The translations under genes and the position numbers were made by a program. Shown piece after piece: positions 14,034 through 22,388 of a stretch of 64,000 bases of DNA. Position 1 is the stretch's first letter. Each line of letters opens with the position of its first letter. Below the pieces are notes generated by a model. The model was given only the letters and a program-made list of their open reading frames with translations. It was not told the origin of the DNA and ran no database searches. Origin of the DNA: Clostridiaceae bacterium (GTDB lineage: Bacteria; Bacillota; Clostridia; Saccharofermentanales; UBA5734); contig JAAYJD010000058.1 of assembly GCA_012523135.1 (NCBI GenBank), positions 8,251-72,250 on the forward strand, read 5' to 3'.

Positions 14034-14079
14034 CTGATGGCCGCGCGCTTCCGTGATCGGTGATCAGGAGGTAAAAGCG

Positions 14080-16194
14080 ATGAATAACAAAAGAGACCCG
14101 GTTTCGCATCCGCATGCGGATCACACACATTCGGACCATCAGCACCCGTCCACAACGCACCGTGGCTTGGCTCATGACGCACACGACGACCATGACGCGC
14201 ATGAACACGTCGGTCATCACGCGAGAATGGCAACCGATTTCCGGCGCCGCTTTTTCTTATCCCTCTTCCTGATGGTTCCCATTCTTGTGCTCTCGCCCAT
14301 GATCCAGATGTTTTTGGCTGTCAACTGGCGCTTCCCGGGCGATTCCTATTTGCTGTTTGGCTTGTCAACGGCCCTTTTCCTGTATGGCGGCTGGCCGTTC
14401 ATCAAAGGCTCAAAAGATGAATTGGCAGAAAAGTCACCGGCCATGATGACCTTGATTTCCCTGGCGATTGTTGTTGCTTACCTTTACAGCTCCCTCATGG
14501 TATTTTTCCTTGAAGGAAGCGATTTTTTCTGGGAGCTGGCCACGCTGCTTGTCATCATGCTGCTCGGTCATTGGATCGAAATGCGTTCTGTCATGGGTGC
14601 CTCAAGGGCACTGGATGCATTGGTGAAGCTCATGCCGGAAGAGGCTCATGTGATCCATGAGGATGGCGAAACGATGGATATGCCCGTTTCAAGCCTTCAA
14701 ACTGGCGATCAGATCCTGGTCAAACCTGGTGAAAAAATCCCGATTGACGGCGATATTTTTGCAGGCAGGTCAACCGTCAACGAGGCGATGATAACTGGTG
14801 AAGCGACACCGGTTGAAAAATTGCCGGGAGATGAGATCGTTGGTGGCTCGATCAATGGCGAAGGCATCTTGAAATTCACAGTCAGCAAGACAGGTGACGA
14901 AACATTTGTTTCCCAAGTGATCAAGCTGGTCCGAGAAGCACAGCAGTCCAAATCCAAAACACAGCGGCTGGCTGATGTCGCAGCCAAATGGCTGTTCTAC
15001 ATCGCTGTCTCGGCCGGTACGATCACATTCATAACCTGGATGTTAGCGACGGGTGAGCTTGGCTTTGCCCTGGAGAGGGCAGTCACGGTCGTCATAATCT
15101 CCTGCCCGCATGCCCTTGGACTCGCGATACCGCTCGTGACCGCGATGTCGACAGGGCTGGGTGCGGAGCAAGGTCTCCTGATCCGAAATCGTGCAGCGTT
15201 TGAAAACGGGCGTAAAACCGACGCCGTTATTTTTGACAAGACGGGCACGCTGACTGAAGGATCATTTGGGGTGACCGACATCGCAGCCATCGACCGAACA
15301 GAGCATGAGCTTTTGGAAATGGTTTTTGCCATAGAATCAAACTCCGAGCATCCAATAGCCAAAGGCATCGTTGCTGAGGGGAAAAAGCGCGGCCTCAAGC
15401 TCAAACCAGTCACGGATTATCAGAACTTGACTGGGCAAGGCCTCAAGGCAACCATTGACGGCCAGGAAATCCTGATTGTAAGCCCCGGTTATTTGCGCAC
15501 GCAGCAAATCAGCTTCGATGAGACCCGGCTGTCGGAATTGTCAGCTAAAGGGAAAACCGTCATTTACATCCTGGCGAACCGGAAATTACTTGGTTTCATT
15601 GCGTTGTCCGATATCATTCGCGTCAACGCCCGTCCGGCGATTGACGCGCTGCATGCGATGGGCATCGATGTATACATGGTGACGGGGGATAACCAGCGGG
15701 CGGCGCAGGCTGTGGCTAGCCAACTTGGGTTGAAACATGTCATGGCCGAAGTTCTGCCGCATGAAAAGGCTTTAAAGGTTGATGAGATCCATCATCTCGG
15801 TAAGTTCGTTGCCATGACCGGCGATGGTGTCAACGATGCGCCGGCGCTGGCCAGGGCAGATCTTGGTATTGCAATCGGTGCAGGCACGGATGTCGCAATC
15901 GAGACCGCTGATGTCATTCTCGTCAAGAGCAATCCCCAGGATGTCGTCAATCTGATCAAACTGTCACGTGCCACATACCGCAAAATGGTCCAGAACCTGG
16001 TCTGGGCAACGGCATACAATTTGATCGCCATCCCGCTGGCCGCCGGTGTCCTCTTCAACCAAGGCGTTGTGATTACGCCGGCACTTGGCGCGGTCCTGAT
16101 GTCGATGAGCACGGTTATTGTGGCGATTAATGCCAGACTGCTGCAAGTTGATAAGCCGTCATCACCGTCATTGAAGGCTGGGATGGAACGGTGA
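14080..16194 (+). CDS. copB: Copper-translocating P1B-type ATPase, CopB-like (His-rich N-terminus, CPH motif)
   Basis: Start at 14080 (AGGAGG upstream). His-rich N-terminus (HPHADHTHSDHQHP ... HDAHDDHDAHEHVGHH). Motifs TGEA, CPH (IISCPHALG), DKTGTLT and GDGVNDAP. Confidence 0.9.
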   Translation: MNNKRDPVSHPHADHTHSDHQHPSTTHRGLAHDAHDDHDAHEHVGHHARMATDFRRRFFLSLFLMVPILVLSPMIQMFLAVNWRFPGDSYLLFGLSTALFLYGGWPFIKGSKDELAEKSPAMMTLISLAIVVAYLYSSLMVFFLEGSDFFWELATLLVIMLLGHWIEMRSVMGASRALDALVKLMPEEAHVIHEDGETMDMPVSSLQTGDQILVKPGEKIPIDGDIFAGRSTVNEAMITGEATPVEKLPGDEIVGGSINGEGILKFTVSKTGDETFVSQVIKLVREAQQSKSKTQRLADVAAKWLFYIAVSAGTITFITWMLATGELGFALERAVTVVIISCPHALGLAIPLVTAMSTGLGAEQGLLIRNRAAFENGRKTDAVIFDKTGTLTEGSFGVTDIAAIDRTEHELLEMVFAIESNSEHPIAKGIVAEGKKRGLKLKPVTDYQNLTGQGLKATIDGQEILIVSPGYLRTQQISFDETRLSELSAKGKTVIYILANRKLLGFIALSDIIRVNARPAIDALHAMGIDVYMVTGDNQRAAQAVASQLGLKHVMAEVLPHEKALKVDEIHHLGKFVAMTGDGVNDAPALARADLGIAIGAGTDVAIETADVILVKSNPQDVVNLIKLSRATYRKMVQNLVWATAYNLIAIPLAAGVLFNQGVVITPALGAVLMSMSTVIVAINARLLQVDKPSSPSLKAGMER

Positions 16195-17615
16195 GCAGAA
16201 TCGTCACACAAAGGGTCTGGCTGATCCTGGCTTTGCTGGCATCCATCCTGGCGCTCGCCGGCATCGTCTTCCTGCTGGTGTCAGGGCGCTATTTCCCGCG
16301 CGCCCAGCCCGACCTTCAGAACGGCAACGAGCTCAAAATACCTGTCTTGCTGCAAGACCAGGATCCCGATCCTGACATGGCGGAATTTGTTCTGGAAGCA
16401 CAATCTGGCCAAACCAATTTCCTCGGCAGCGTCATGACAGACACACTCGGCTATAACGGCTCCTACCTCGGGCCGGTCCTTCGTATCCGGAAGGGCGAGA
16501 AAGTCACGATACGCGTCAACAATCAGCTGGATTTTCCCACCACCCTCCACTGGCACGGCCTGGTGGTCGACGGAGAACAGGATGGCGGTCCGCACCAGGG
16601 TATCCAGCCGGGCGAGAGCTGGAATCCGACCTTTACCGTCGACCAGGCGGCAGCCACCTTGTGGTACCACCCGCATCTGCTGGGGGATACGGCAGACCAG
16701 GTTTATTACGGATTGTCGGGACTGATCTACATTGACGATGAAAACGCCGACCAACTGAACCTGCCCCAAGCGTATGGCCAAAATGACATCCCGTTGATCG
16801 TTCAGGACCGCAGCTTCAACCGCGATGGCAGCTTAGCTTATCGCACATCGATGATGGGTGTGGCAGCCGGTGACACCCTCTTGATCAACGGGACAATCAA
16901 CCCCTATCTCAATGTCAAAAAAGAACCGGTCCGCTTCCGGATTTTAAACGCCTCAAACGCGCAGAATTTCGCGTTCCGCTTAAGTGACAACAGCCGTTTT
17001 TGGCAAATAGCCTCAGACGGCGGTTTCCTGGAAGCGCCGCTGATCCGTCGCTCGATCTTTCTGGCACCTGGGGAAAGGGCCGAAGTCATCGTTGATTTTT
17101 CGAAGACAAAGCGCAGCGACGTGGCGCTTATGGTTGGGAAATCGGCGATCATGGCGATCCGTATCTCCGATGAAAAAACGGAAACCAGCGCGATACCTGA
17201 ATCATTGACCGATATCGAGCCTTTGATCGAAGGCAATGAGCCGAGAACACGCGTCTTCGACTTGCAGAGCATGGGCATAAGCGGGACCATAAACGGGAAG
17301 TCTTTCGATATGAACCGCATTGACGAAGAGGTGAATCTCAACGAGACCGAAATCTGGATCATCAGGAACAGAGGTGGCATGATGCAAACCGGGGGGCACC
17401 CCTTTCACGTGCACGGTACGCAGTTTCAAATCATCTCCAGAAACGGCCGGCCGCCGCCGCCCCAGGAGCAAGGATACAAGGATACGGTCTTCGTCAACAT
17501 CGGGGAAGAAGTCGCCATCCGCGTGCGGTTCACCCATGCGGGTCTTTTCATGTACCATTGCCATATTCTTGAGCACGAAGACAACGGCATGATGGGACAA
17601 TTCCGGGTTTCCTGA
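16191..17615 (+). CDS. Multicopper oxidase (CueO/laccase-like)
   Basis: 474 aa. Copper-ligand motifs HWHG, WYHPH, HPFHVHG and HCHILEHEDNGMM. GTGA overlap with the copB stop. The N-terminal hydrophobic anchor has no twin-arginine motif. Confidence 0.9.
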   Translation: MSRIVTQRVWLILALLASILALAGIVFLLVSGRYFPRAQPDLQNGNELKIPVLLQDQDPDPDMAEFVLEAQSGQTNFLGSVMTDTLGYNGSYLGPVLRIRKGEKVTIRVNNQLDFPTTLHWHGLVVDGEQDGGPHQGIQPGESWNPTFTVDQAAATLWYHPHLLGDTADQVYYGLSGLIYIDDENADQLNLPQAYGQNDIPLIVQDRSFNRDGSLAYRTSMMGVAAGDTLLINGTINPYLNVKKEPVRFRILNASNAQNFAFRLSDNSRFWQIASDGGFLEAPLIRRSIFLAPGERAEVIVDFSKTKRSDVALMVGKSAIMAIRISDEKTETSAIPESLTDIEPLIEGNEPRTRVFDLQSMGISGTINGKSFDMNRIDEEVNLNETEIWIIRNRGGMMQTGGHPFHVHGTQFQIISRNGRPPPPQEQGYKDTVFVNIGEEVAIRVRFTHAGLFMYHCHILEHEDNGMMGQFRVS

Positions 17616-17748
17616 AGCGCAGGCAGGGCTGCCACGAGCCAGTCTGCGTGTCCTAGGCAACGGCGGATGATGCCTGCCTGCGATACGATAAACATGGCGA
17701 AATGTTGCTCATTTACGCTTATGCTGGATATAAAAGGATTGATGATCG

Positions 17749-18909
17749 ATGACCAACAAACAAAAAACCGTGCTGATCCTGCTGACCGTTGTTCTGGTCG
17801 GAGCCGTCGTGTTCGGCCTGACCCGGCTGGGCGGACAGCCTGCCGAAACGACAACCAACTCCGTCACCACAGCCACCACGGCCACGGATCCGCGCACGGG
17901 TCTGCCCTACAACCCCAATACCGCTATTGACTACAGCCAATCCAGCCTGCGGGATATCTGGCTGGCCGGCGGCTGCTTCTGGGGTGTGGAGGCCTACCTG
18001 GCCCGCGTTCCCGGCGTCGCCGAGGCGACAGTCGGGTACGCCAACGGCAACACGGAAAATCCGACCTACCAGGATGTATCGTACAAGAACACCGGCCACG
18101 CGGAAACGGTCCACCTGCGCTACGACCCCGATCGGATCAGCCTGGACCAGCTGCTCGAGCAGTACTTCCTGATCATCGACCCGACGGTCCTGAACCGCCA
18201 GGGCAACGATGTCGGCAGCCAGTACCGGACCGGAATCTATTACCAGGACGAGGCTGACCTGGCTGTGATCAAAGCGGCGATCGAGCGGGAACAGGAAAAA
18301 TACACCCGTCCGATCGTGGTCGAGGTCGAACCGCTGGCGCAGTACTATCTGGCCGAGGCGTACCACCAGGACTACCTGGAAAAAAACCCGGGCGGCTATT
18401 GCCACATCTCGTTTGACACCTTGCCAGGTGCGAACGACATGAACGCCACCGGTTTGGTCGACCCTTCCCTGTACCGCAAACCAGACCCGGATACCATCCG
18501 CAACATGCTCAGCGCGGAACAGTACCAGGTGACCCAGGAAAACGGGACGGAAATGCCCGGCACCGGCGAGTACGAAAAGAACAAGGCAGACGGCATCTAT
18601 GTCGACATCGTGACCGGCGAACCGCTGTTCAGTTCCCGTGACAAGTTTGATTCCGGCAGCGGCTGGCCCAGCTTCACCCGTCCGATCGATCCGGCGGTGG
18701 TCAATGAGCTCAAGGATATCTCGATCGGCATGCTGCGCACCGAGGTCCGCAGCCGGGTCGGCGATTCGCACCTGGGCCATGTTTTCGCCGATGGGCCGGC
18801 CGACCAAGGCGGCCTGCGCTACTGCATCAACAGCGCCGCTTTACGCTTCATCCCGCTTGCAGACATGGAACAGGAAGGCTACGCTTATTTGCTGCCGCTT
18901 TTCGGCTGA
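17749..18909 (+). CDS. msrAB: Membrane-anchored bifunctional peptide methionine sulfoxide reductase MsrA/MsrB
   Basis: 386 aa. N-terminal TM segment, MsrA motif GGCFWGVE, and MsrB motifs GWPSF and RYCINSAAL. Confidence 0.9.
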
Positions 18910-19775
18910 CCGGCCCGGTCCGCCAGGATCAGGCCGGCCAGGATCAGGGCGGCGCCGGCGCCGGTATAGAGCGAGACCGGTTCATCCAGCAGGATCGCCG
19001 ACAGGATCGTGGTCAGCAGCGGGCTGAAATAGATGTACTGGTTGGTCCTGGCCGGCCCGATCGCCCGGATCGCCTGGTTCCACAAGATGAAAGCCAGCGA
19101 AGAAGCCGCGATGCCCAAAAAGAGGATCCCTGCTATTGTGCCGGTGGAAACAGAACGGACAGCCGGCGGCTGCCGGCTGACCAGGGCAAATCCGGCCAGC
19201 ACGACAAACCCGTAGACAAAGACCTTGCGCGTCAGCTGCACCAGGTGCAGCCCGTGCCGGGTCTTTTCCATCAGGAGCGAATAGACCGCAAACATGACGG
19301 CGGCGCCCAGCGCCAGCAGATCGCCGTTCAAGGCCAGGCCGGATGCCTGCTGGCTGTTGCGAATGATCAGGAAAACGCCCAGGTAAGCCAGCACCAGGCC
19401 GGCCGCGCTCCGGATGCCGAACAATCGCTTCCGGAACAGCAGGAGCGACAGCAAACCGGTCAAGAGCGGAATGGTGGCGTCGATCAGGCTGACATTGGCG
19501 GCATAGGTCAGCTGGAGCGCGCGGTTCTCGAGCAGGAAATAGGCGGCCAGGGCTGCGCCGATCGCCAGAAACAAGCCTTCTTCCCGCCAGCTCACCGGTT
19601 TGCTGAAATGCGGATAAAGCACACTCAGCGCGGCCAGGGCCACCAGGAAGCGCGCCAGCAAAACCTGCAGGGGGCTGAGTTCCTCCAGCAGGACCTTGCT
19701 GATGATGAACGTCGAGCTCCAGATGGCAACCGTAACCAGGGCGAACAGGTGTCCCTTGAACGTATGGCGCGACAT
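18885..19775 (-). CDS. DMT superfamily (EamA-like) transporter
   Basis: 296 aa, about 10 TM. The start lies 1 nt after the ABC ATPase stop. The 3' end overlaps the convergent msrAB gene by 25 nt. Confidence 0.8.
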
Positions 19776-19776
19776 G

Positions 19777-20472
19777 TCAGATCATCGGGCGTGTGACGTC
19801 AAGGCTGATGCGTCCGTCCCGGATCTCGACGATCCGATCGGCTTTCTCGGCGATCTTGCGGTCATGCGTGATGATGATAAATGTCGTCTTGAACTGGCCG
19901 TTGACCTGGCGCAGGATATCGTAGATGATCTCTGTCGTGTCAGAATCGAGGTTGCCGGGCGGCGCATCCGCCAGGATAATCCTGGGGGTCATGATCAGGG
20001 CGCGGGCGAGCGCCGGCCGCTGCTGCTGGCCGCCGGACATTTCGGTCGCCTTGTTGTTCTTGACCTTGCTGCGGCCGACCAGTTCCATCAGCTCATCGGC
20101 CCGTTCGCGGACCTCGGCCGTCGGCTTGTTGTGCTTGATCAGGTAGGGCATCAGGACATTTTCCAGCGCGGTGAATTCAGGCAGCAGATAGTGGAACTGG
20201 AAAATGAACCCGATCGTCTCGTTGCGCACGACGGCCAAGTCGTTTTTGGTCATGTTGCTGGTTTGGATCCCGCCGATCATAACGGTTCCGGATGTCGGCC
20301 GGTCCAATGTGCCCATGATGTTCATCAGGGTCGACTTGCCCGAGCCGGACTGCCCGATGATGCTGTTGAAGGACTGCTCCTCGAAAGCGAGGTCGATGTC
20401 GAACAAGACCTGCGTCTGGATGGCGGTGCCATAAATCTTGTTGATGCCGGACAGCTCAATCGCATTAGCCAT
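19777..20472 (-). CDS. ABC transporter ATP-binding protein (MacB/LolD-type)
   Basis: 231 aa. Walker [10 protein letters not shown], signature MSGGQQQR, Walker [12 protein letters not shown] (a Pro-Gly where this subfamily usually has Glu-Pro). Confidence 0.9.
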
Positions 20473-21631
20473 TGCGTATCACCTCGATTGGATCAAGCCG
20501 GGCCGATTTGCGGGCCGGGATCAGGGAAGCCAGCGACGATGCCGTCACGGCGATCAGGAAGGACAAAAAGAAGAAGGCCGGATCGATCAACAAGGCGATG
20601 ACCGGGGTTCCGTCCGGGTTACGGGCGAAGACGGTGAAGCTGTACGCCAGGCCCAGACCGAGCACAACCCCCGCCAGGCCGCCCAGGACGCCAAGAATCA
20701 GGCCCTGATAGAGAAACACCAGGCTGGCCTGGCGGCTCTTGATGCCCATCGCCTTGAGAATGCCGATCTGACGCGATTTCTGCATGACCGAGATCGCCAG
20801 CACGCTGGCGATGGCCAGGACAACCGATACGACGACAAACACCTGGATCATGATGCTGGAAATGCTCTGGCCGTTCAGGCCGGACAGCAGCTGTTCATTC
20901 TGCGCTTTCCAGTTGGTGACCGCCAGGTCCTTAAGCTCGGGCAACGCCTGCAAATCGGCGGCGATCGTGTCGGCCAGGAAAACATCGCCGCTGTCCACCT
21001 GCATTTCGATTGAAGTCACCCGGCCGGCCTGGTCGAGCTGCTCCTGGGCTGACGCCAGCGTGGTCAGAAACCAGCTCGTATTCAGGCTTTGCACCTGCAG
21101 GTCGAAAACGCCGCAGATCGTATATGTCAGGCGTTTGCCGCCGGCGACGGTCACATCAAGCGCGTCGCCGATGGCCACACCCCACTCGGCCTGCAGTCCT
21201 TTGCCGATGATCGCCTCGTCCACAGCGGACGGCAGCCGCCCCTGGACGATCCGGTCAGCCAGGGCGTAAATCTGCTCGGCGGCAGCAAAGTCCAGGCCGC
21301 GAAGCAGGACCGAACCTGTCTCGTCGCCGTTGGTCGCCAGTCCGGCCTGGTCGAGGACCGGTGAAAGGGCCGTGATCCGGCTTTCCGTCTGCCGGATCGC
21401 CTGCATGACACGGTCGGCGTCCGTGAACAGCTTGTCGTCAGCCTTTGAGACGACCGTGATCTGGGACGCGTTGCCAATGGTCGTTTCGACCAGGCTCTTC
21501 TGCAATCCCTGGATCAGGGATCCGATAAAAATCTGCACCGAGATGCCGATGGCAATCCCCAGCACGATCAGGATGGTCTGCCCGCGGCTCGATTTGAGGA
21601 AGCGAACGGCGATTTTCAGCGATACACTCAT
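20465..21631 (-). CDS. ABC transporter permease, FtsX/MacB-type (4 TM plus a large extracytoplasmic domain)
   Basis: 388 aa. N-terminal TM helix, an extracytoplasmic domain of about 230 aa, and a C-terminal FtsX-like 3-TM bundle (GILKAMG ...). Confidence 0.85.
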   Translation of the reverse strand: MSVSLKIAVRFLKSSRGQTILIVLGIAIGISVQIFIGSLIQGLQKSLVETTIGNASQITVVSKADDKLFTDADRVMQAIRQTESRITALSPVLDQAGLATNGDETGSVLLRGLDFAAAEQIYALADRIVQGRLPSAVDEAIIGKGLQAEWGVAIGDALDVTVAGGKRLTYTICGVFDLQVQSLNTSWFLTTLASAQEQLDQAGRVTSIEMQVDSGDVFLADTIAADLQALPELKDLAVTNWKAQNEQLLSGLNGQSISSIMIQVFVVVSVVLAIASVLAISVMQKSRQIGILKAMGIKSRQASLVFLYQGLILGVLGGLAGVVLGLGLAYSFTVFARNPDGTPVIALLIDPAFFFLSFLIAVTASSLASLIPARKSARLDPIEVIRNG

Positions 21632-22287
21632 GCGTGTTCCTCCTCGAGCTGCCGGATGTCGTCCGGGGTCCGGATCACAGCCAGCGCCCCGATTTGGCGG
21701 AAGAGCTCCGGATCGTGGTAGAACGCGTTGCCGCTGGCCAGGATCCGTTGGCCAGGCAGCCGCTCCTTGATCTCCGCAACGATTTTTTTGATCTTGAACA
21801 AATTGTAAAAATTGACCGCGTTGATCACCACGTAGGCAGGCTTTTCCAGGGCCAGTCCCTGGAGCAGTTCAGCCTTGGGCGTGTTGGCGCCGACATAGAT
21901 CGCCTCGTAGCCCTGCAGGGTGAAAAAATCGCTGCCCATCCGGGCGCCCAGCTCATGGAACTCGTCGGTCGGCGAGACGATGACGACCTTGCCCTTGTCC
22001 GCGGTGGTCTGCCTGGCCGCACGCTCCGCGAGCACGAAGGGATAGCAGCACTCGATCACGGTACGGACGATGCCGCTGCGGACGTGCTCTCGCCAGATGG
22101 CGGCCGGATGGCCGGACTCCGAATCGGTCATGCTGTTCAAAACCGGTGCCAGGATTTTCGTATAAAGCCCCACGATGTCGTGCGCGTTTGCCTCCAGCAG
22201 TTGCCTGGCCAGCTGGACACAGCGTGGCTTGTCCATGGCTTCCAGAGCCGCGCGGAAAGCCGTATAGTCGGTTATTTCTGCATTCAT
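21628..22287 (-). CDS. Stand-alone cobalamin (B12)-binding domain protein (helical cap plus Rossmann domain with DxHxxG)
   Basis: 219 aa. It has the VVIVSPTDEFHELGARM motif (DxHxxG) and a downstream GANTP segment in a Rossmann-like domain. I see no DNA-binding or catalytic domain. ATGA overlap with the FtsX permease gene. Confidence 0.75.
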   Translation of the reverse strand: MNAEITDYTAFRAALEAMDKPRCVQLARQLLEANAHDIVGLYTKILAPVLNSMTDSESGHPAAIWREHVRSGIVRTVIECCYPFVLAERAARQTTADKGKVVIVSPTDEFHELGARMGSDFFTLQGYEAIYVGANTPKAELLQGLALEKPAYVVINAVNFYNLFKIKKIVAEIKERLPGQRILASGNAFYHDPELFRQIGALAVIRTPDDIRQLEEEHA

Positions 22288-22359
22288 GGCTCTTCCTCCC
22301 CTTTTTGCTATCTGGTGCGGACGCGACGCACCGCATGACCCTCTAGGGTGATCTTCATC

Positions 22360-22388
22360 ATCTTAGCAGAGTATTCATTCGATCGCAA
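22360..22388 (-). promoter_or_regulatory. Sigma-A-type promoter of the B12-binding/ABC/DMT operon
   Basis: On the minus strand: TTGCGA (22388-22383), 17 nt, TAAGAT (22365-22360). Confidence 0.55.

Follow-up and report, generated by a model that had tools for sequence, protein, structure and literature searches.

A stand-alone B12-binding protein encoded with a MacB-type ABC transporter is a candidate light-sensing subunit of the pump

In a 64,000-nucleotide stretch of a Clostridiaceae genome (GenBank assembly GCA_012523135.1, contig JAAYJD010000058.1), hereafter the window, a stand-alone B12-binding protein is encoded directly upstream of the permease and ATPase of a MacB-type ATP-binding cassette (ABC) transporter. 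The same three-gene cassette recurs in distant bacterial and archaeal phyla. From sequence comparisons, we tentatively favor the reading that the B12-binding protein is a photosensor that serves as a dedicated light-sensing regulatory subunit of the pump. As a preliminary description of the locus had reported, four packed minus-strand genes are present at these coordinates (aa, amino acids):

21628-22287 (-): stand-alone B12-binding protein, 219 aa (open reading frame [ORF] and Pfam PF02310)
20465-21631 (-): MacB/LolC-type permease, 388 aa (Pfam FtsX and MacB_PCD)
19777-20472 (-): ABC ATPase, 231 aa, like LolD and the MacB nucleotide-binding domain (Pfam ABC_tran)
18885-19775 (-): EamA/drug-metabolite transporter (DMT), 296 aa (Pfam EamA), a lineage-specific passenger

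The junctions were also as described, with a 4-nucleotide (nt) ATGA overlap between the B12 and permease genes, an 8-nt overlap between the permease and ATPase genes, and a 1-nt gap before the DMT gene. The DMT transporter had been counted as part of the system, but we rejected it as a member of the conserved unit because, among 80 genome and 80 metagenome loci, a homolog stands 3′ of the cassette only in L001. It is a lineage-specific passenger, and the conserved unit comprises the first three genes only.

The genome loci were searched from the B12 protein, with 256 found and 80 kept for neighborhood analysis. The metagenome loci were searched from the permease and form an independent collection, with room upstream of the permease in 71 of the 80 and room downstream in 65. 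The B12 proteins constitute a family of stand-alone proteins of ~205-245 aa. A word-indexed search returned 76 clusters, and 1.84 billion proteins yielded 760 representatives scoring E ≤ 1e-30, with fused relatives counted as well. In 77 of the 80 genome loci, the B12 gene is followed on its own strand by the permease gene and then the ATPase gene, and the three exceptions were two contig ends and one Bathyarchaeota locus. Among the metagenome loci, the stand-alone B12 gene lay directly 5′ of the permease in 63 of 71, a divergent paralog fused to a helix-turn-helix (HTH) domain (XRE-HTH-B12) was present in 2 more, and neither was found in 6. The slot in the eight loci without the stand-alone gene held a MarR, TetR, or XRE-HTH-B12 regulator in four and an HlyD-type adaptor in two others. 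The ATPase followed the permease in all 65 loci with room for it. The junctions were similarly tight in the two collections: the stop of the B12 gene and the start of the permease gene overlapped or lay ≤14 nt apart in 124 of 125 loci (a 4-nt overlap in 79), and the permease-ATPase junction was ≤20 nt in 117 of 120. The pairing is thus not unique to the genome in which it was first noticed, and the adjacency of the B12 gene to the ABC genes is far beyond chance. Hosts were mostly uncultured Bacillota but also included Dehalococcoidia, Thermotogaceae, Methanomassiliicoccaceae, and other Thermoplasmata, and this spread over distant phyla suggests a self-contained unit.

Some loci departed from the common layout. 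The Bathyarchaeota locus (L063, 6884-7570, +) has a family member but neither a permease nor an ATPase gene near it, and was the only clear solitary case among the 80 genome loci. At two metagenome loci (L094, 782-1669, -; L095, 6-917, -), an HTH-fused B12 paralog sits beside the permease-ATPase pair and the stand-alone gene is absent, indicating that the same pump can pair with either form of the sensor.

The 219-aa protein matched the Pfam B12-binding family PF02310 at 42.9 bits against a cut-off of 32.1. Its cap matched PF02607 (B12-binding_2) weakly, at 16.9 against a cut-off of 23, and a helical bundle was visible in the AlphaFold2 (AF2) model, which had a predicted local distance difference test score (pLDDT) of 93.2 and a predicted template-modeling score (pTM) of 0.89. 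By Pfam and AF2, the protein consists of a helical cap plus a Rossmann domain, with no DNA-binding (HTH) or other output domain. Together with the invariant ligand His described below, this bears out the earlier description of a stand-alone cap-plus-Rossmann B12-binding module. Two motifs mark the presumptive cobalamin site:

22084..22095 (-): cap motif W65-R-E67-H68, invariant in alignment A1
21946..21963 (-): E109-F-H111-E-L-G114 (ExHxxG), with the lower axial cobalt ligand His (alignment)

Residues E109, H111, E112, L113, and G114 were invariant in 34 sequences. The ligand motif had been given as DxHxxG. The His stood up to this check of its conservation, but the motif itself was misread: the Asp of DEFHELG is at His-3, and the invariant Glu at His-2 makes it ExHxxG. 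Across 73 homologs, the window protein deviated at none of the 22 positions conserved at ≥95%. The Ser of the SxT/SxL motif is Asn156 in the clade of the window and Ser in most family members, and G186 is invariant.

These residues and the overall fold point toward the light-sensor branch. The E67-H68 pair aligns with the adenosyl-pocket EH of CarH, CtMerR (“IWEEH” in 8jbs), and the photocobilins, and it is absent from MttC. A family profile searched against solved structures matched CtMerR (8jbs, 9e-20) and photocobilins (2e-18) ahead of MttC (1.6e-12), and its match to AerR was marginal (7te2, E 9e-4). Foldseek against the PDB placed a photocobilin on top (template-modeling [TM] score 0.85), followed by the CtMerR B12 domain and TtCarH. 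The profile and structure comparison proposed in the preliminary description therefore gave photocobilins, CtMerR, and CarH as the nearest solved relatives, and, judged from its sequence, the 219-aa protein belongs to this photoreceptor branch of B12-binding domains. A published signature of light-responsive cobalamin domains consists of GxxW, EH, GxxH, and GxxxP, of which EH contacts the adenosyl group (PMC11796333). The family carries the EH, the His of GxxH, and the GxxxP (G133...P137). The family lacks GxxW and the Gly of GxxH and would probably be missed by the SignatureFinder filter that uses this signature. With respect to the Wx9EH motif of the CarH/LitR adenosyl pocket, the EH is invariant and there is no Trp 10 residues upstream; an invariant Trp stands at EH-2, like W164 of CtMerR. 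The NCBIfam CarH model scored 32 bits against a cut-off of 400. In an exhaustive search of 1.84 billion representatives, the next-best relatives had an extra N-terminal region of ~140 aa; of ten scanned, one had a phycobilisome/globin-type match plus GGDEF and another had PAS plus a histidine kinase. These extended relatives resemble the photoglobin/photocobilin sensor class.

The gene neighborhoods point in a similar direction. Flanking ORFs at the 80 genome loci were grouped into clusters, and those clusters that recurred were annotated. At least one photolyase, carotenoid, UvdE, or DUF523/DUF1722 neighbor was present at 23 of the 80 loci, in at least six lineages and in differing gene orders. 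Photolyase occurred at 15 loci, a CrtI-type desaturase with phytoene/squalene synthase at 13, DUF523 (with or without DUF1722) at 10, and UvdE-DUF1722 at 5. Because these loci are phylogenetically related to one another, counting lineages is fairer than counting loci. By a rough estimate, random 14-kb windows should contain a given single-copy gene, photolyase for instance, well below 1% of the time. In Mageeibacillus-like loci, photolyase, DUF523, CrtI, CrtB, and two membrane proteins precede the cassette on one strand; Carnobacteriaceae loci read CrtI, CrtB, TetR, cassette, UvdE; and Proteiniclasticum loci combine an HTH-B12 regulator divergent from the cassette with photolyase, DUF523, and DUF2177. 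The further lineages were represented by one Dehalococcoidales, one Clostridiaceae, and one Lachnospiraceae locus. At 12 loci, a gap of 27-126 nt separates the end of the ATPase gene from a UvdE or photolyase gene in the same orientation. In L082, on the P0010 contig, UvdE overlaps the stop codon of the ATPase gene, and at three metagenome loci it lies directly 5′ of the B12 gene. Stress from oxidants or DNA damage is suggested by other neighbors, namely flavodiiron protein, SRAP, glutathione peroxidase, an AP-endonuclease-fold protein, and glyoxalase.

Several neighborhoods had features of their own. In one clade (L062, L064, L065, and L072), a flavodiiron protein is convergent downstream, SRAP (SOS-response peptidase) is upstream except in L064, and DUF2703 is upstream except in L072; the common thread here is oxygen and DNA damage, not light specifically. 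In Anaerovoracaceae, a PAS-GGDEF-HD gene (L015, 5115-6998; L031, 5211-6992) overlaps the B12-gene start by 9 nt, with the domains checked in L015 and, for L031, taken from the layout. The gene after the ATPase encodes a CobW/MeaB-like GTPase in L015 (9553-10341, 27 nt downstream) and a PAS-GGDEF protein in L031 (9530-10429). This layout hints at a link to cyclic di-GMP (c-di-GMP) signaling. The divergent regulator of Proteiniclasticum (L066, 5907-6983; also L057, L061, L068, L069, L073, and L075) is an XRE-HTH + B12-binding_2 + B12-binding protein of ~300 aa with the same WxEH motif. In the intergenic region it shares with the cassette, a TTGCAA/TATATT promoter is preceded by the conserved palindrome ATCAC-N6-GTGAT, which probably serves as the operator for a light-responsive repressor of a non-MerR type.

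The pump itself is of a familiar architecture. The permease has one transmembrane helix, an extracytoplasmic MacB_PCD domain, and three C-terminal transmembrane helices. Its Pfam matches (FtsX, 63.4 bits; MacB_PCD, 59.7 bits) were both over the cut-off, and the ATPase matched ABC_tran at 95.9 bits. The nearest solved relatives of the permease were LolF, LolE, LolC, and MacB. Scores remained below the NCBIfam equivalog cut-offs for lolCE (130.8 vs. 362.45) and LolD (240.5 vs. 307.75). Each cassette has a single permease gene, which implies a homodimer. An HlyD-type membrane-fusion protein is encoded near the cassette in L021, L030, L033, and L055 and in metagenome loci L103, L117, L123, L127, L157, and L160. 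In L021, L030, L033, L117, and L123, it lies directly upstream, which recalls the MacA-MacB arrangement in hosts that should have only one membrane.

From the fold, motifs, synteny, junctions, and neighborhoods observed, we infer a cofactor, a response to light, a direct contact with the ABC proteins, and control of the pump in one direction or the other. Adenosylcobalamin (AdoCbl) would most likely be held between the helical cap, with its invariant EH, and the Rossmann domain, with the invariant His of ExHxxG. The B12 protein would be made together with the pump and serve as its regulatory subunit. Light would cleave the Co-C bond and change the conformation or oligomeric state of the B12 protein, which in its changed form would turn the pump's ATPase cycle on or off through contact with the cytoplasmic parts of the pump, most plausibly the ATPase dimer. 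A family-specific patch of the B12 protein, E79-x-x-Y82-P83, is a candidate surface for such contact. MacB-type systems (MacB, LolCDE, HrtBA) use mechanotransmission to act on substrates found at the membrane's outer face, and a cytoplasmic B12 protein is consequently more likely to be a regulator than a cargo carrier. Like the MacB, Lol, and Hrt systems, the pump would act at this outer face as part of a photoprotection response; a membrane-partitioning photosensitizer or a photo-damaged lipid is our guess at the substrate. In its most specific form, this proposal describes a light-gated ABC transporter in which the stand-alone sensor binds the ATPase or permease and gates mechanotransmission, making the cassette a portable three-gene photoprotection module in anaerobic bacteria and archaea. 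We regard this form as possible but rather doubtful.

Several observations weigh against the proposal that the B12 protein is a light-sensing subunit of the pump. No fusion of the B12 protein to the permease or ATPase was found among 76 B12 matches, the 120 best permease matches, and the 150 best representatives. The mirror-tree correlation between the B12 protein and permease was moderate (r 0.75, Spearman 0.30; permease vs. ATPase, r 0.88), a comparison made uninformative by the saturation of the B12-protein distances. Foldseek also fitted the methyl-transfer corrinoid protein MtmC (3ezx) at a TM score of 0.80, so the fold alone is not decisive. The four-part light signature is only partly present: there is no GxxW, the Trp standing at EH-2 instead, and D, E, or another residue takes the place of the Gly in GxxH. 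Roughly 70% of loci have no obvious light-related neighbor. The window is among these, with no photolyase, crt, or UvdE gene in its whole 64 kb. Finally, the hosts are mostly strict anaerobes, many of them from light-poor digesters and sediments.

An alternative that we consider unlikely is that the protein is an AerR-like light-sensing transcriptional co-regulator, whose DNA-binding partner is encoded elsewhere or is the adjacent TetR or XRE protein. The pump would then be its most conserved regulated target and would not be touched by the sensor. Stand-alone B12 co-regulators do exist, including AerR and the photocobilins, which act via protein-protein contacts (PMC10979010). Parts of the neighborhood data also fit: a TetR gene lies directly upstream of the B12 gene in Carnobacteriaceae loci, the Proteiniclasticum paralog and its palindrome form a divergent regulatory region, and the HTH-fused form replaces the stand-alone protein in L094 and L095. 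However, most loci have no adjacent transcription factor, and the need for a host-specific DNA-binding partner sits poorly with a fixed three-gene unit found across bacterial and archaeal phyla. The near-universal stop/start overlap with the permease is, moreover, typical of co-made subunits rather than of regulators.

We think it quite improbable that the protein works in the dark as a sensor, buffer, or donor of corrinoids, with the ABC system exporting, salvaging, or removing corrinoids or their photolysis products. The B12-binding residues are kept, and the CobW/MeaB-like GTPase stands 27 nt downstream in one locus (L015). The association with light-stress genes would also fit the removal of photolysed corrinoids. 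Hosts among the Dehalococcoidia, Methanomassiliicoccales, and Clostridia depend heavily on corrinoids, and MacB-type pumps are reported to handle tetrapyrroles (heme for HrtBA, protoporphyrin for MacAB). Against this, no cobalamin riboswitch (RF00174) was found 5′ of the window cassette or of 23 other cassettes scanned (270 kb), and the one riboswitch near a cassette, in L037, presumably serves other genes. Neither cobamide biosynthesis nor Btu/Cbr genes recurred in the neighbor clusters, and the invariant EH is an adenosyl-pocket feature of light sensors that MttC lacks. We also know of no pathway in MacB-type transporters for a hydrophilic cytoplasmic substrate, which speaks against cargo delivery by a cytoplasmic binding protein. 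No homology to BtuCDF, CbrT, or BtuM appeared among the Pfam and NCBIfam matches shown, although no dedicated test for it was made. The preliminary description had offered three options, namely a corrinoid-gated exporter, a corrinoid handling or salvage system, and a B12- or light-dependent regulator of transport. The last fits best, and the corrinoid options are unsupported by riboswitches or by the neighbors, which are photolyase, UvdE, and carotenoid genes rather than cobamide genes.

Least of all do we expect a methyl-transfer corrinoid protein of the MtaC, MtmC, or MttC type that lies beside an unrelated ABC transporter by chance: some sources name homologs “methanogenic corrinoid protein MtbC1,” the structural fit to MtmC is good, and the NCBIfam MtgC, MtaC, and pyl_corrinoid models match weakly (E 6e-7 to 1e-4), but the corrinoid-protein scores, that of TIGR02370 among them, are 21-29 bits against curated cut-offs of 215-450, methyltransferase (MT1, MT2) or RamA-type activase genes did not recur in 160 loci, the ABC synteny is near-absolute, and the EH motif is absent from MttC.

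Returning to the favored light-sensing subunit, comparison with known systems shows which parts are familiar and which are not. CarH/LitR and CtMerR, the AdoCbl-dependent light-responsive MerR repressors (PDB 5c8d, 8jbs), share the cap-plus-Rossmann module, the ExHxxG His, and the EH pair, and CtMerR also shares the Trp two residues before EH. CarH and CtMerR control photolyase and carotenoid genes, and the same gene types neighbor the cassette. Unlike CarH, the 219-aa protein has no DNA-binding domain and lacks the Trp of Wx9EH/GxxW, and its constant partner is an ABC transporter rather than an operator. Stand-alone photocobilins and AerR resemble it as sensors without an enzymatic or DNA-binding output, and the photocobilin B12 domain is the best structural match. 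They differ in that the 219-aa protein has no globin or biliverdin domain, and its putative MacB-type partner is unlike any partner reported for them (CrtJ, diguanylate cyclase).

On the transporter side, MacAB, LolCDE/LolDF, HrtBA, and YknXYZ/Spr0693-0695 (type VII) likewise combine FtsX and MacB_PCD, four transmembrane helices, and a separate LolD-like ATPase. MacAB and YknXYZ also share the HlyD-type adaptor that is upstream in some cassette loci. By contrast with LolCDE, the cassette falls under the LolCE/LolD equivalog cut-offs and its hosts are Bacillota, Chloroflexota, and archaea. These hosts, monoderm bacteria and archaea, are presumed to lack an outer membrane and a Lol pathway. To our knowledge, no known MacB-type system has an operon-encoded cytoplasmic cofactor-binding partner. 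Control of an ABC ATPase at the protein level by cytoplasmic regulators is known from EIIA-Glc acting on MalK and from the regulatory domains of MetN and ModC. These cases offer an analogy only: a cytoplasmic sensor protein or domain binds the nucleotide-binding subunits and gates their ATPase cycle in response to a signal, with no homology to the present proteins, and the signal here would be light or the corrinoid state.

The cassette is thus a known sensor module with a new, unusually fixed partner. The known outputs of B12 photoreceptors are DNA binding (CarH), an antirepressor partner (AerR), and diguanylate cyclases (photocobilins). For ABC transporters, in turn, we know of no control by light or by a subunit that binds corrinoids, and of no light-gated example. 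Database labels of the parts read only “cobalamin-dependent protein” and “lipoprotein-releasing system permease.” A literature search returned no description of a B12-binding protein paired with an FtsX/MacB transporter, although absence from such a search does not prove that the pairing is unpublished. The fixed pairing and the frequent UV-repair and carotenoid neighbors suggest that the cassette is a B12- or light-controlled pump of a kind not described before. If light gates the ABC ATPase directly, this would be the first light-gated ABC transporter and a new regulatory principle for transporters. Direct coupling would also extend the known outputs of B12 photobiology by a class, offer a compact means of switching a membrane ATPase with green light, which would be of optogenetic interest, and give a handle on the light tolerance of strict anaerobes, including Dehalococcoidia and relatives of methanogens. 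Cultured hosts are Proteiniclasticum ruminis (DSM 24773, locus L066), P. aestuarii, P. sediminis, and Clostridium grantii (DSM 8605, locus L028).

The window copy of the pump carries an unusual ATPase. The preliminary description had drawn attention to its Walker B region, and the change is real in the window sequence:

19957..19965 (-): Walker B change, GCG CCG CCC (Ala170-Pro-Pro172) vs. GAG CCG ACC (Glu-Pro-Thr) in relatives (alignment)

The window ATPase reads DAPPGNLD (ILADAPPG), whereas all 71 full-length homologous ATPases aligned read DEPTGNLD, so the change is private to this genome and not a feature of the system. E170A and T172P are two A-to-C changes 6 nt apart, and the first removes the catalytic Glu. 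Loss of this residue in ABC ATPases should abolish hydrolysis and spare ATP binding. With it gone, the window pump is probably unable to hydrolyze ATP, unless the change is a sequence error. At positions conserved at ≥95%, the ATPase deviated at 3 of 80 (E170A, T172P, and I190V) and the permease at 0 of 66. A dN/dS (nonsynonymous to synonymous substitution rate ratio) of 0.21 indicates continuing purifying selection on the window ATPase. As a source of the change, a general pattern of A-to-C errors was not supported, as the substitution spectrum between the window and L001 was ordinary and transition-dominated. No second record of the exact ATPase sequence was found in the databases searched, and L081, from the same species as the window, does not extend to the ATPase. 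The change is either a private and probably recent inactivation or a sequence error.

Upstream of the window cassette, two expression signals were read:

22360..22388 (-): candidate promoter TTGCGA-17-TAAGAT with a TGn extended -10 (sequence reading)
22295..22300 (-): Shine-Dalgarno GGGAGG, 7 nt before the B12-gene ATG (sequence; kept in L001)

The promoter had been proposed at this position and its sequence is indeed there, with the extended -10 and the downstream Shine-Dalgarno, yet it matches only 8 of 12 consensus positions, which is under the threshold of the promoter scan, and it was not listed there. Its -10 block, AATACTCTGCTAAGATGATGAAGATCAC, is identical in L001 (an 88%-identical relative) and in L081. 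Control of the cassette by a cobalamin riboswitch was rejected on the scan of the window cassette and the 23 others. The sole cobalamin riboswitch near any cassette scanned (L037, 3751-3927, -) is on the other strand, ~3 kb upstream of the cassette. Its targets are presumably the minus-strand genes that follow it, an ABC-type ATPase gene among them, and not the cassette. A c-di-GMP-I riboswitch (L011, 1078-1162, +) is located ~5 kb upstream of another cassette.

Elsewhere in the window, three plus-strand genes (14053-18909) are convergent with the DMT gene and lie just downstream of it. Judging by their ORF translations only, they resemble a copper P-type ATPase (CPH and DKTGT motifs), a multicopper oxidase, and a fused MsrA/MsrB methionine sulfoxide reductase. 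The sole Rfam match in the window was a T-box leader (RF00230, 9624-9853, -, 100.7 bits), which fits a Bacillota origin.

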